From: Hydrogenovibrio sp.
GTDB taxonomy: Bacteria > Pseudomonadota > Gammaproteobacteria > Thiomicrospirales > Thiomicrospiraceae
Reading direction: 5' to 3' (one strand)
DNA length: 64,000 nucleotides
NCBI GenBank assembly: GCA_049975065.1
Contig: JBNGDN010000001.1
Below, piece after piece: positions 3,563 through 63,456 of the stretch. The translations under genes and the position numbers were made by a program. Numbering within the stretch: position 1 is the first letter of the stretch; each line of letters starts with the position of its first letter. The notes beneath the pieces were generated by a model that saw nothing but the letters and a program-made list of their open reading frames with translations, made no database searches and was not told the DNA's origin.

Positions 3563-4760
3563 TGCTCAAGAGGCCTCACAGCGAGGCCAACCTCCCTCAC
3601 CTGTTTTTGCACTGGTCGCCGGTGAAGCCTCTGGTGACACGCTTGGCGCTGAGCTGATAATCTCTTTGAAACAGCGGTTTCCGCAGGCTTGTTTTGTGGG
3701 GATTGGTGGGCCTAAAATGCTGGCTGAAGGCATGGAAAGCTGGTATCCGATGGAGCGGTTGTCGGTAATGGGGTTTTTTGAAGTCCTTAAAGTTTTACCA
3801 GGCCTGGTCAAATTGCGTCATCGGCTGATTCAAGGGTTGCGGGCGTTACAGCCGGATGTGTTTATTGGTATTGATGCGCCGGATTTTAACTTTCGTGTCG
3901 AGGCTGAACTCAAAGCAGCTGGGGTGCCGACGGTTCATTATGTCGGCCCTTCGGTTTGGGCCTGGCGCGAAAAACGGTTGCTCAAAATCAAACACTGTGT
4001 GGACGGCGTGTTGGTGCTCTTTCCGTTTGAGTTACCCTTTTATGAGAAATATGGCATTCCAGCTCGTTTTGTCGGTCATCCTTTAGCCAATCAGGTGCCT
4101 GAGGTGCCCAATGCTGAACGGGCGAGAAGGGCGCTTGGGGTGCCGTTGGATGTTCCAGTGACGGGGCTTCTGCCCGGTTCGCGTCGCAGTGAAATTGATT
4201 CCATGATCGATGTTTATGTCCAGGCAGCGGCGTTTCTCGCCGACGTCTATCCAAGTATGTGGTTTTTGGTGCCGTGTGTGAACGCCGCCGCAAAACAACG
4301 TGTGGCGCAGTCATTTTCCCAGTATGGTCGCGACTTGAACGTTCTTTTGTTGGATCAGCAGGCTCAGCGGGTGATGGAGGCCGCGGATCAACTGATTGTG
4401 ACGTCCGGCACCGCCACTTTGGAAGCCGCCTTGATGAAGCGCCCCATGGTTCTGGCGATTAAGTTGCACCCCATCACCCACTGGATTATGCGTCGTCTAG
4501 CGACAACTCAGTGGGTTGGCTTGCCGAATGTGCTGGCGCAAAAATCCATTGTGCCGGAATACATTCAACAGGCGGCAACCCCTAAGCAAATTGCGTTAGG
4601 CCTGGGGAAACTCATTTCCGACCCTGCTTTGCGCCAAGCGCAACTGACCGAATTTGACGCTCAATATCACTTGCTCAAGCAAGCGGCTTCTGAGCGCGCG
4701 GCGGAGGCGGTAGTGGAGTGGAGTGGATTGAATGAGTGGGTGTATGACCAAACTACCTGA
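3546..4760 (+). CDS. lpxB: Lipid-A-disaccharide synthase
   Basis: Contains the LVAGEASGD motif near the N-terminus. Overlaps the lpxA stop. GTG start is assumed. Confidence 0.92.
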
Positions 4761-5460: not shown

Positions 5461-5492
5461 CGGTTGCCCCAAATTGGTGAAACATTCGGGTT
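5461..5492 (+). repeat. Solo right-arm-like remnant of the 169-bp repeat family
   Basis: cggttgccccaaattggtgaaacattcgggtt resembles the right terminal arm tcggtgcaaatttgtgaaatattcgggtt of the elements at 15694 and 41664. No left arm was found nearby. Confidence 0.4.
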
Positions 5493-15590: not shown

Positions 15591-15693
15591 ATGATTGCCC
15601 AAAAAACGGGGTTACGGTATAATTTGATTCCATTCTGATTATCCAATTCCGGTAGGTACTAGCCAGTTTCAAAGGCATTTTTTAATGATGTCT

Positions 15694-15862
15694 TTAACCC
15701 GAATGTTTTATGGATTTGTGCCGAAATTGCGCAGAACCTTGTTTTCACAAGGAAATTTTCGAAGAAGTGTCGTATTCATGATTACGGCCGACTGAGAAAA
15801 TATTTCTTGTAGAATCAAGGAGCAAGCAAGGTCGGTGCAAATTTGTGAAATATTCGGGTTAA
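15694..15862 (+). mobile_element. 169-bp MITE-like / structured-RNA repeat, intact copy 1
   Basis: 157/169 identical, without indels, to 41664-41832. TTAA at both ends. The 31-nt terminal arms pair continuously (24 Watson-Crick + 7 G-U in + sense). Internal hairpins at 15737-15752 and 15769-15788. No ORF. Confidence 0.85.
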
Positions 15863-15892
15863 CTGAATAATGCTGAATTAAGTCCAAGCTAA

Positions 15893-17569: not shown

Positions 17570-18403
17570 ATGAATTTATGCGGTTTTAAAGTTGGAATCG
17601 ATCAACCGTTATTTTTGATTGCGGGTCCGTGTGTGATCGAATCGGAACAGTTGGCACTGGATACAGCCGAGCAGCTGAAAGTTTTGACCGACACCTTGGG
17701 CATTCCGTTTATTTTTAAATCGTCTTACGATAAGGCGAATCGTTCGTCCACCAAAAGCTTTCGCGGCTTAGGGATTGAAGAAGGCTTGCGTATTTTGCAG
17801 AAAGTGAAAGACGAGATCGGCGTGCCGGTTTTGACGGATGTGCATGAAGACACGCCATTGGATGAAGTGGCGTCGGTAGTGGATGTGATGCAAACGCCAG
17901 CCTTCTTAGTGCGTCAAACCAACTTTATTCAAAACGTCTGCCGCCAAGGCCTGCCGGTCAATATCAAAAAAGGTCAGTTTCAGGCGCCTTGGGATATGGA
18001 TCAGGTGGTATTGAAAGCGAGAGAAGTCGGGAACGATCAAATTATGGTCTGTGATCGCGGTACGTCCTTTGGTTACAACACCTTGATTTCCGATATGCGC
18101 GGCCTGGCGTCCATGCGTCAAACCGGCTGTCCGGTGGTGTTTGATGCGACGCACTCCGTGCAGCAGCCGGGTGGGCAAGGCACCACTTCCGGCGGGCAGC
18201 GTGAAATGGTTCCGGTGTTGGCGCGTGCTGCCGTAGCAGCCGGTGTCTCCGGTGTTTTTATGGAAACCCATCCGAATCCGGAAAAAGCCTTGTCAGACGG
18301 CCCGAATATGTGGCCACTGGGGAATTTGAAGCCCTTACTGGAAACCCTGAAGTCCATTGACGATGCGGTCAAGGAAAAAGGCTTTATTGAAAACCTGTCC
18401 TAG
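17570..18403 (+). CDS. kdsA: 3-deoxy-8-phosphooctulonate (KDO-8-P) synthase
   Basis: 277 aa, [12 protein letters not shown] motif; pyrG-kdsA-eno order. Confidence 0.95.
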
Positions 18404-18455
18404 CCCGAAAAGTTCATAAATCACGCCCCTTTTCGCTTTTATGAATTTCCGGGCT
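18402..18455 (+). repeat. Long imperfect hairpin overlapping the kdsA stop; its arms resemble the 169-bp element termini (miniature relative?)
   Basis: agcccgaaaagttcataaa ... ttttatgaatttccgggct pair as 6 bp + mismatch + 3 bp + bulge + 8 bp. Left arm versus element arm: aacccgaatatttcatgaa. Confidence 0.5.
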
Positions 18456-18540
18456 AAAACCGGCTTCAAAAGCCGATAAACCGAATTTGTCATCCGGCTG
18501 CCATAATCTGTTTTTAGAATGCAACGGATGAAACCAATAA

Positions 18541-23186: not shown

Positions 23187-23302
23187 TAGCCCGAAAATTT
23201 ACCTTTGGTTCTTCGTTTCTGAAAACCCTCGTATTCACGATTGCGACGGACTGAATCACGCTTATCATGGAATCAAGGCGTCAGTAAGGCCAGTGAAAAT
23301 GT
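23187..23302 (+). repeat. Degenerate copy of the 169-bp element
   Basis: tagcccgaaaattt start, then cgtattcacgattgcgacggactga (versus cgtattcatgattacggccgactga), exact gaatcaagg, and ccagtgaaaatgt (versus tcggtgcaaatttgt). The right terminus has decayed. Confidence 0.55.
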
Positions 23303-24494: not shown

Positions 24495-24595
24495 TTCGAA
24501 TCCGAAGTGCTAACCTGAAGGGTTCACAAGCTTGCTACTGAGCTTGCTGGCTTCTTGATTCCAATCGCCTGCAAATTTATCAATTTTCCGAACTG
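24495..24595 (+). repeat. Probable internally deleted, decayed copy of the 169-bp element
   Basis: Collinear blocks match the intact copies: ccgaa.tgc..aacct, ttcacaag, actgag, ttcttg, and tgcaaatttatcaattttccgaac (versus tgcaaatttgtgaaatattcgggtt). By eye about 60-65% identity with a roughly 50-bp internal gap. Confidence 0.4.
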
Positions 24596-38644: not shown

Positions 38645-41832
<3,188 letters not shown>

Positions 41833-61988: not shown

Positions 61989-62756
61989 ATGAGTTTTGAA
62001 TTAATATTGGTGATTGTCACCGCCATTACCGGTGTGGTTGTGTATGTTGATAAGGTGGTGTGGAAGCCGAAACGTGATCGCTCCGTCACCACTGAAAAAG
62101 AGCCGATATTAGTTGAATACTCGCGTTCTTTATTTCCCGTTTTTTTGATCGTGCTGGTGTTGCGTTCCTTTGTGGCCGAGCCGTTTCGTATTCCATCTGG
62201 TTCCATGTATCCGACCTTGGAAATCGGTGATTTTATTGTCGTCAACAAGTTTTCGTATGGTGTGAAATTGCCAGTGACCCAGACGAAAATCCTGCCCGTC
62301 GGTGAGCCGAAGAGGGGGGATGTGGTGGTGTTTAAATATCCGAAAGACCCGGATGTGGACTACATTAAACGGGTGGTGGGGTTGCCGGGCGACGAAATTG
62401 CCTATTACGGAAAAACCCTGTTTGTGAATGGTCAAGCGGTCAAACAGACATTGCTGGGGGAGTATGAGGGCGTGGCCTCCGGAAAAGTGATGGACGGCGC
62501 GACCTTACTGGAAGAGTTTTTTGGAGAGCATTCGCATGATATTTTGTTAGACCCCGAAAAGCGTGGGCAGGATATGACGACGGTGACGGTGCCGGAAGGG
62601 CATTACTTTATGATGGGGGATAATCGCGATCACAGTAATGACAGCCGTTTTTGGGGGTTTGTTCCTGAGCGCAACCTGAAAGGCAAGGCCTTCGCAATTT
62701 GGATGAATTGGGACGACGGCATTCAGGTTGAACGAATTGGCAAAGGGATTGAGTAA
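61989..62756 (+). CDS. lepB: Signal peptidase I
   Basis: IPSGSM catalytic Ser box, KRV.G.PGD Lys box, GDNRD.S.DSR box. Confidence 0.93.
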   Translation: MSFELILVIVTAITGVVVYVDKVVWKPKRDRSVTTEKEPILVEYSRSLFPVFLIVLVLRSFVAEPFRIPSGSMYPTLEIGDFIVVNKFSYGVKLPVTQTKILPVGEPKRGDVVVFKYPKDPDVDYIKRVVGLPGDEIAYYGKTLFVNGQAVKQTLLGEYEGVASGKVMDGATLLEEFFGEHSHDILLDPEKRGQDMTTVTVPEGHYFMMGDNRDHSNDSRFWGFVPERNLKGKAFAIWMNWDDGIQVERIGKGIE

Positions 62757-62757
62757 C

Positions 62758-63456
62758 ATGTCGGAAGGGGAAAAACGCATCAAGCTTGAGCGCTTGGCGA
62801 AGGCGCTTGGTTACCAATATCAGAACCTGGAGTTGCTTCAGCGTGCTTTAACCCATCGCAGTGTGGGGGCGCGTAACAATGAGCGCATGGAGTTCTTAGG
62901 GGACAGTTTGGTTAACTTTATCATTGCCGATGCGTTGTTTCACCAGTTTCATAAGATTTCCGAGGGGGATTTGAGTCGGATTCGCGCCTATCTGGTGAAG
63001 GGCGAAACCTTAGCGAAAATTGGTAGAGAATATCAATTATCGGATTATTTGATGTTGGGGCCGGGCGAGTTGAAGAGTGGTGGTTATCGGCGCGAATCCA
63101 TTATCGCCGATACGATGGAAGCGATCATTGCGTCCGTCTATGAGGATGGTGGCTTGGAGGCTTGCCGTGCCTTTGTGTTGCGCAGTTACGAGAACCGCTT
63201 GAAGGCACTGGATCCCGCCAAAGTGGGCAAAGACCCGAAAACTCGGTTACAGGAAGTTCTGCAATCCAGTCATCAAGAGTTGCCGGAATACAGTGTTATT
63301 TCGGTGAATGGTCCGGCTCATGCTCAGGATTTTACTGTCTGTTGTTATGTGGCGAAGTTGAATCGAAAGTTTGAGGCAACCGCGACTAATCGGCGTAAGG
63401 CGGAGCAATTGGCGGCTGAAGAGGCTTTGGAAATTCTGGAGAAAAACGATGACTGA
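62758..63456 (+). CDS. rnc: Ribonuclease III
   Basis: RNase III signature NERMEFLGDS plus a C-terminal dsRBD. ATG 62758 lies 1 nt after the lepB stop codon; the track ORF starts at 62728. Confidence 0.93.
   Translation: MSEGEKRIKLERLAKALGYQYQNLELLQRALTHRSVGARNNERMEFLGDSLVNFIIADALFHQFHKISEGDLSRIRAYLVKGETLAKIGREYQLSDYLMLGPGELKSGGYRRESIIADTMEAIIASVYEDGGLEACRAFVLRSYENRLKALDPAKVGKDPKTRLQEVLQSSHQELPEYSVISVNGPAHAQDFTVCCYVAKLNRKFEATATNRRKAEQLAAEEALEILEKNDD

Follow-up and report, generated by a model that had tools for sequence, protein, structure and literature searches.

A TTAA-inserting IS982-type MITE of Hydrogenovibrio and other proteobacteria keeps a fold on one strand, whichever way it lies relative to host genes

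A 169-nt repeat found upstream of pyrG and again upstream of yjgA in Hydrogenovibrio sp. is a non-autonomous, TTAA-inserting MITE of the IS982 type, and its relatives in other proteobacteria conserve its fold on one particular strand. The stretch of DNA that holds both copies, 64,000 nucleotides long and hereafter called the window, had been the subject of an original prediction according to which the element is selected as a + sense RNA structure with a role in the processing, stability or uncoupling of host mRNAs. The structural part of this prediction stands, the one-strand fold being conserved throughout the family; a role in host mRNAs is not supported as the reason for its conservation. 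Strand-specific structural conservation is real, and the fold is probably selected for the propagation of the element and not for host mRNA processing.

Both copies lie on the + strand of the window and are 93% identical. They are bounded by terminal inverted repeats, TTAACCCGAAT... and ...ATTCGGGTTAA, with 31 nt of pairing, and the element is small and devoid of a transposase, with no internal ORF of 80 aa or more. Altogether, the window contains two intact copies and five fragments or mini forms, listed here with the context of copy 1:

5470..5492, + strand: solo terminal repeat CAAATTGGTGAAACATTCGGGTT
15595..15623, + strand: promoter-like site TTGCCC-17-TATAAT (10/12 matches) located 5' of copy 1; context, not part of the element
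15694..15862, + strand: MITE copy 1, full length (169 nt), in the tilS/pyrG spacer and within the pyrG leader; covariance model R1, 140.9 bits (+) and 55.8 bits (-)
15694-15697 and 15859-15862: terminal TTAA, the duplicated target of copy 1
18400..18457, no strand assigned: 58-nt mini-hairpin with MITE-like arms TAGCCCGAAAAGTTCATAAA...TTTATGAATTTCCGGGCTA, starting at the kdsA stop codon; R1, 28 bits, E 1.4e-4
23229..23300, + strand: decayed MITE fragment (central hairpin and part of the 3' arm); blastn, 71% over 73 nt, E 7e-4
24511..24563, - strand: decayed right half of the MITE; blastn, 78-79% over 51-53 nt, E 1e-6 to 2e-5
41664..41832, + strand: MITE copy 2, full length (169 nt), inserted at a TTAA holding the ligA stop codon
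45888..45907, + strand: solo terminal repeat TTAACCCAAATGTTTCAGGA

All copies had been described as co-oriented with the flanking transcription units, which fails inside the window itself given the decayed right half on the - strand. Neither a conserved internal ORF nor a Shine-Dalgarno sequence is present in the element across the sub-families compared, and a function as intrinsic terminator was ruled out since no T-run lies 3' of the stem. Rfam 15 gave no match in the window at the gathering score, and the best match at a relaxed threshold was a plant miRNA model (20 bits vs 139.7 required). We found no annotated feature for the element. Literature searches on the terminal 10-mer returned primers only, and those on MITEs in the host genera nothing specific. 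This MITE lineage, common to sulfur- and ammonia-oxidising proteobacteria, has apparently not been described so far.

The element had been set apart from selfish DNA. It is instead a mobile MITE, as seen from an empty site, from an insertion into an IS982 transposase gene and from its IS982-type termini. In two related loci (L117 and L118, YjgA 98% identical), the ligA-yjgA spacer is only 33 nt long, has a single TTAA and lacks the MITE: the empty sequence GCGCGC-TTAA-ATAAGCG corresponds to GCGCGC-TTAA[CCCG...CGGG]TTAA-AAAGCG in the window. At this site, the ligA stop codon TAA (41665-41667) is part of the target TTAA of copy 2. The host is related to Hydrogenovibrio and Thiomicrorhabdus; the best named matches of the window YjgA are 72-82% identical, and neither its PyrG nor its YjgA has an exact counterpart on record. 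In Nitrosomonas sp. Nm132, one copy (locus L057) resides inside an IS982 transposase pseudogene, as ..CTGCAC TTAA[..]TTAA TCATTAAT, and deleting the element together with one TTAA restores the reading frame, K-L-H-L-I-I-N. TTAA, or at least its central TA, occurs on both sides of the inserted element.

Copy 1 was also detected beside a 99%-identical tilS in a contig that breaks within the element (L138), originating from the same sample as L117 and L118. Since copy 1 is shared with L138 and copy 2 is absent from L117 and L118, copy 1 is the older insertion and copy 2 a recent polymorphic one. A more distant relative (L140) is without copy 1 and keeps GGGGTTACGGTATAAT, the promoter-like TTGCYC-17-TATAAT, along with the leader 5' of the insertion point, which places copy 1 in sense within the pyrG leader. 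Based on this position 3' of a conserved promoter-like site, copy 1 is very probably transcribed in its folding sense, and local RNA effects on the pyrG leader are plausible.

The termini relate the element to a known transposase family. A 981-bp unit of Acinetobacter (L126, 4001-4981) is made of TTAACCCGAATCGCGGATAAG, a gene coding for a 301-aa transposase and GGATCCAGGTTAA. Its transposase matches PF13612 (3e-44) and the NF033520 'IS982 family' model (3.7e-75, 252.7 bits vs a cut-off of 130). The 11 terminal bases of the window MITE, TTAACCCGAAT, are identical in this IS982 element, and ACCCGAAT is common to the window MITE, the Acinetobacter IS982 and Lactococcus IS982B. Acinetobacter also carries a 165-nt MITE with the same ends as its IS982. 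More broadly, the ends of IS982 elements from Moraxella, Leptospira, Vibrio, Lactococcus (ACCCGAATTGCTAG) and marine contigs read ACC(C/T)GA(A/G) or ACGTGAG, and several members of the family are flanked by TTAA; those of Vibrio and Leptospira with readable flanks apparently generate a 7-bp duplication, not TTAA. Judging from these ends, the derivation of the element from the IS982 family seems clear, an autonomous element combining the same ends with an IS982 transposase being known from the Acinetobacter branch only. A piggyBac/IS1380 parent, suggested by TTAA and CCC...GGG, was dropped on finding an IS982 transposase between the same ends.

A direct parent was also sought closer to the window. 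No IS982 gene was detected in the 64-kb window by tblastn, the proteobacterial hosts sampled yielded no cognate IS982 that shares the extended terminal repeat (TTAACCCGAATRTTTCATRAATT), and none of the IS982 members compared had subterminal sequence matching the window/Nitrosomonas branch. Three IS982 proteins from outside Acinetobacter (P0160, P0166 and P0190) were rejected as parents, their ends being of the ACCTGAG or ACGTGAG type, and the IS982 relic of Nm132 has different ends, TAACGTGAGTTCGAC. The ends expected of a cognate IS982 are TTAACCCGAATRTTTCAT at a spacing of 0.9-1.1 kb. IS982 members with ACCCGAA ends are without the IEHSRHRS motif.

Most of what had been described for the two copies themselves was recovered. 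Counted from the ends inward, the terminal stem of copy 1 has 31 pairs (24 Watson-Crick, 7 G-U, no mismatch), and that of copy 2 has 24 Watson-Crick pairs, 6 G-U pairs and 1 mismatch. Of the six stem pairs at which the copies differ, five remain paired (UA>UG, GU>AU twice, UG>CG, CG>UG). The hairpin at 15769-15788 shows, at its second pair, the claimed series U-G, C-G and U-A. The distance to the next ATG is 39 nt for copy 1 (pyrG, 15902) and 32 nt for copy 2 (yjgA, 41865); the rnc ORF, with its NERMEFLGDS signature, is likewise present in the window (62728-63456). One structural detail had to be abandoned: the local hairpin at 15737-15752, proposed as an invariant unit, is supplanted by long-range pairing both in the minimum free energy (MFE) fold and in the family consensus. 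Indeed, beyond the 31-nt arms, the whole 169 nt fold into one rod on the + strand, with MFE values of -78.9 (copy 1) and -79.1 kcal/mol (copy 2) and z about -11, vs -45.0 and -50.0 kcal/mol for the complement. With DNA parameters the gap between strands is smaller but kept (-34.9 vs -26.3 kcal/mol). In the two copies alone, 7 G-U against 0 A-C pairs give p about 0.016. The five pair-preserving changes out of six are in themselves weak evidence, because three of the five are exchanges between G-U and Watson-Crick pairs and any transition at a G-U pair keeps pairing; it is the family as a whole that makes the case strong.

To collect this family, one genome per species was scanned with the pattern TTAACCCGAA-N140-160-TTCGGGTTAA, which returned at least 116 stretches with at least 127 elements against a chance expectation, by our own arithmetic, of roughly 10-25 matches. 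Among the matches listed, clear homology to the window copies is seen for 85 elements (68-86% identity), whose hosts are Nitrosomonas, Nitrosospira, Gallionellaceae, Methylotenera, Thioalkalivibrio, Ectothiorhodospiraceae, Chromatiaceae and Hydrogenovibrio halophilus, the latter carrying the closest relative among these matches (86%). Nitrosomonas sp. Nm132 stands out, as the parts of its genome that were sampled contain about 50 to over 60 copies. A covariance model built from the homologues (R1) recovered 107 full-length copies in the sampled DNA, scoring about 140-205 bits in sense and 52-87 bits in antisense, and also matched mini-elements of 56-64 nt, including some from Nm132. The length constancy of 160-180 nt was rejected as evidence, as it is imposed by the search pattern. 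Elements from Verrucomicrobiota, Elusimicrobiota, Planctomycetota, Parachlamydiales and Bacteroidota have the ends alone in common with the window element and are again whole-length hairpins; the first 10 nt of the termini are also found on unrelated elements in many phyla.

No partner gene recurs near the copies, the neighbours being ABC transporters, RecG, kinases and similar genes only, and no Y1 or RAYT gene is recurrent. Window and Nitrosomonas copies had no match in plasmid and phage collections, and the end pattern was absent from viral contigs. Pairs of ends 0.3-4 kb apart in the sampled loci turned out to be neighbouring MITEs or host genes.

In all 85 of the 85 relatives from beta- and gamma-proteobacteria among the matches listed, the strand homologous to the window + strand folds better than its complement. 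The RNAalifold consensus has 53 pairs, 25 of which show compensatory double changes. On this consensus, 97.2% of the alignment cells are paired, vs 90.9 +/- 0.2% in shuffles and 35-46% with slid partners; double-change cells number 242 vs 53 in shuffles, and the covariation score is 0.244 vs 0.127 in shuffles and 0.05-0.07 with slid partners. None of 500 shuffles reached any of these measures. Over the 53 pairs, 3881 cells are Watson-Crick, 342 G-U, 27 A-C and 95 other, these being counts of cells and not of events, in sequences that are related and mostly from one genome (Nm132). The excess of G-U over A-C inferred from the window thus extends to the family. Mirrored onto the opposite strand, the same structure would reach about 90% pairing.

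The same polarity appears when sub-families are taken separately. Their consensuses have 9 (window group), 4 (Nitrosomonas), 8 (Ectothiorhodospiraceae) and 3 (Chromatiaceae) G-U pairs, together occupying 17 distinct pair positions, vs a single position for A-C. Aligning elements with their own reverse complement, which is independent of any fold, gave G-U/A-C counts of 10/2, 9/3, 10/1, 9/1, 6/0 and 8/0. Where lineages differ in having A-U or G-C at a given pair, the intermediate state is G-U and almost never A-C, as illustrated by pair 57-116 (GU 56, AU 16, GC 7) and pair 62-110 (GU 60, AU 16). Moreover, the best-conserved of the 'unpaired' bases can be arranged, across the central loop, into two tandem G-A/A-G motifs that flank two Watson-Crick pairs. 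Of 82 sequences, 80 have G69-A103, 79 have A70-G102, 73 have G73-A99 and 78 have A74-G98; on the complement, these positions would be pyrimidine-pyrimidine mismatches.

A role in host mRNAs would have the + sense double-stranded stem cut by RNase III, or have it control stability or uncouple cistrons, by analogy with Correia elements. Several observations are in its favour: the two intact copies of the window share the sense of the genes around them and stop 32-39 nt short of the next start codon, copy 1 sits in the pyrG leader 3' of a conserved promoter-like site, its + strand offers 31 uninterrupted pairs and rnc is present. Correia transcripts are indeed cut by RNase III at their terminal repeats, as reviewed in PMC10969869. 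Copies of the family at large are nevertheless oriented at random. With the sense strand defined by the model, and genes taken crudely as long non-overlapping ORFs in 8-kb fragments, the tandem-gene contexts among the 107 copies comprise 25 co-oriented and 33 opposite cases (p=0.36), so that no orientation bias was seen and the claimed co-orientation with transcription does not hold for the family. Random orientation is half of what the original prediction had named as its refutation; the other half, a lack of G-U excess, did not occur. Nm132 alone (15 co-oriented, 19 opposite), copies with both flanks shorter than 300 nt (16 and 18) and an earlier count by fold energy (25 vs 25) agree. Some copies occupy spacers between convergent or divergent genes, one lies within a transposase gene, and 12 of 24 multi-copy loci have mixed orientations within 8 kb, which gives no sign of a replication-strand rule in these loci either. 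Fold quality is equal in both orientations (median MFE -78.8 kcal/mol co-oriented and -79.3 kcal/mol opposite, p=0.81), and a 98%-identical relative has no insertion at the site of copy 2, hence yjgA and ligA work without the element. Within Nm132, paired columns have accumulated about three times fewer substitutions than unpaired ones (59 in 106 columns vs 120 in 64), and this slower change of the stems, which also speaks for a host role, could reflect some constraint in place. Mutations private to single Nm132 copies lead from Watson-Crick to G-U 13 times and to A-C 7 times, a difference that is not significant. We therefore consider a host-selected role in mRNA processing quite improbable.

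Mutation alone is an unlikely source of the pattern. In a fold-back palindrome, a transition that appears as G-U on one strand must appear as A-C on the opposite one, and hence a strand-biased process (C-to-T and A-to-G deamination of the non-template strand) could produce the G-U excess if it acted in a few master copies or in a parent IS transcribed one way, with arm symmetry maintained via conversion between arms. The fixed transcription direction of a parent IS suits this scenario, and the weak, non-significant G-U excess in inserted copies fits a bias arising before insertion. However, G-U lies between both A-U and G-C states, requiring changes of both types, A-to-G and C-to-T; full double changes are seen at 25 pairs; the tandem G-A pairs, found on the same strand only, are left unexplained by mutation bias; and the polarity is the same in sub-families of different hosts. 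A third possibility, that the arms resemble each other solely as binding sites for the same transposase and that the stem is never single-stranded, appears highly improbable. It would accommodate the outermost 20-25 nt, which form ordinary terminal inverted repeats, the presence of the first 10 nt on unrelated elements from many phyla, and the existence of mini-elements reduced to the arms. Yet palindromy and compensatory change run through the interior, over about 80 pairs vs about 20-35 bp for IS982 repeats, and the conserved interior motifs are unlike between the left and right arms. Besides, a duplex reading cannot favour G-T over A-C, and 342 vs 27 cells were observed.

Compensatory substitutions across sub-families consequently point to selection on a single-stranded form, and the combination of random orientation, equal preservation both ways and no clear selection in place would accordingly set the constraint on propagation. 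The whole element is an imperfect palindrome, and its + strand folds into a rod of about 80 bp comprising Watson-Crick pairs, many G-U/G-T wobbles and the two tandem G-A motifs. According to the explanation we favour, selection for propagation, selection would act on the single-stranded form of this folding strand, and only source copies whose sense strand folds would be amplified. Two routes may be envisaged: either the transposase recognises the element as folded or cruciform single-stranded DNA, or the folded form is an RNA of the element. The two intact window copies, both in sense, are probably transcribed into a long hairpin that RNase III could cut, which would then be a side effect. 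We infer both the level of selection and the nature of the folded molecule, RNA and single-stranded DNA not being separable because G-T also stabilises DNA hairpins (the gap of -34.9 vs -26.3 kcal/mol given above). We know of no DDE transposase that needs a folded single strand, nor of any precedent in the IS982 family for selection at the proposed level.

As a general rule, we raise only tentatively that IS982-type MITEs of beta- and gamma-proteobacteria may, independently of host transcription units, be selected for folding in the single-stranded form of one particular strand, in which G-U/G-T wobbles are accompanied by two invariant tandem G-A motifs. If true, a folded single-stranded DNA intermediate or an element RNA would be obligatory in the life cycle of a MITE depending on a DDE transposase, which is undescribed for this class. 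An explanation of the unusual association of a strand-biased fold with random insertion orientation would bear on the synapsis and movement of very short MITEs. It also calls for caution in the discovery of RNA motifs, as clean RNA-like covariation can belong to a selfish element and not to a host regulatory RNA.

MITEs derived from IS982 are already known, such as MITECca01, which stems from ISCca4 in Cardinium, is about 240 bp long and is lineage-specific (PMC9769881). The window MITE shares with the IS982 family and its MITEs the (TTA)ACC(C/T)GA(A/G) terminal motif, and like these MITEs it is non-coding, dispersed and intergenic, with one copy of its family in another mobile element. Its interior is unrelated to that of MITECca01, and it differs from IS982 MITEs by its whole-length hairpin, its strand-biased fold and its occurrence in several proteobacterial orders.

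The window element also resembles Correia, ERIC and YPAL elements, all hairpin MITEs entering mRNAs, but is not a member of any of these groups. Correia elements (CREE/NEMIS) of Neisseria are alike in their size of about 100-200 bp, in terminal inverted repeats able to pair as RNA and in being often located just 5' of genes and co-transcribed; the stem of the window element is comparable and even longer. There is however no sequence similarity, both its termini and its interior differing from the consensus of the 26-bp Correia repeat, and the parent family and hosts are others, those of the window-element family belonging to Thiotrichales, Nitrosomonadales and Chromatiales and not to Neisseria. 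Cleavage, promoters and an IHF site have been demonstrated for Correia elements. We found no report of a strand-biased G-U excess in Correia elements.

ERIC and YPAL are whole-length imperfect palindromes of 127-170 bp that form RNA hairpins when transcribed and occur in both orientations. They have no sequence relation to the window element, and ERIC is without an assigned transposase family, unlike the IS982-linked window element. When located at gene 3' ends, ERIC alters mRNA decay via RNase E (PMC10969869). REPIN/RAYT and palindromic elements derived from IS200/IS605 are likewise short mobile hairpin repeats and are thought to be handled as folded single strands, a mechanism of the type that would account for a fold on one strand. 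Unlike the window MITE, however, with its TTAA duplication, DDE-type IS982 ends and mixed orientation, they rely on HUH tyrosine transposases, are biased as to strand or replication, and have no terminal inverted repeat that comes with a duplicated target.

In the window itself, copy 1 puts a hairpin of about -79 kcal/mol in the pyrG leader and copy 2 overlaps the ligA stop codon, which makes the two insertions natural test cases for expression. A possible hybrid -35/-10 was also noted at the right end of the window element.

In the 99%-identical population L138 (Logan SRR28369931), the copy of the 169-nt IS982-type hairpin element upstream of pyrG (MITE 1) carries TTAATCCGAAT at about position 3920, where TTAACCCGAAT otherwise stands; the L138 assembly ends within this element. 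The site of copy 2, between ligA and yjgA, is found without insertion in L118, a contig from the same sample as L138 whose YjgA is 98% identical to that of the window. TTGTGA, contributed by the right terminus of copy 1, lies 17 nt upstream of AATAAT in the flank (window 15843-15871); together they form a possible hybrid promoter (9 of 12 positions match) reading outward ahead of pyrG.

Arms resembling those of the MITE also occur as shorter hairpins. 'Arms only' mini-elements of 56-64 nt, comparable to the one detected in the window, are present in Nitrosomonas sp. Nm132:

Window, 18400-18457: 58-nt hairpin with MITE-like arms, beginning at the kdsA stop codon
Nm132 locus L034, 4700-4755: mini-element
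Nm132 locus L023, 2878-2940: mini-element
Nm132 locus L018, 1169-1224: mini-element
Nm132 locus L029, 4911-4967: mini-element

Another Nm132 locus (L057, 341-1073) contains an IS982 transposase pseudogene interrupted by a MITE copy at 721-890, and the terminal sequences of this IS982 are of the TAACGTGAGTTCGACATAAG type, unlike those of the MITE. On Acinetobacter lwoffii plasmid NZ_CP077338.1 (L125, 3001-5560), two IS982-type ends enclose a 2.56-kb segment encoding an alkaline phosphatase D family protein in place of an intact transposase, and this segment may be either an IS that has undergone rearrangement or a passenger unit delimited by the ends. On a metagenome contig (L136, 42-383), the gene for an IS200-like Y1 transposase immediately adjoins an IS982 copy; this juxtaposition of nested mobile elements is probably coincidental.

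Within the 64-kb window there are 20 occurrences of the palindromic 10-mer CCAGGCCTGG, against 0.09 expected, and most of these sites lie within genes. Examples are as follows:

Window, 3798, 14915, 15365, 32643, 39952, 40128 and 58199: CCAGGCCTGG

It was not found in the Nitrosomonas, Thioalkalivibrio and Chromatiaceae loci. Hydrogenovibrio halophilus carries it four times in 8 kb, and it is also present in the relatives L120 and L117. The 10-mer resembles either a highly iterated palindrome specific to the lineage or a word akin to an uptake signal.
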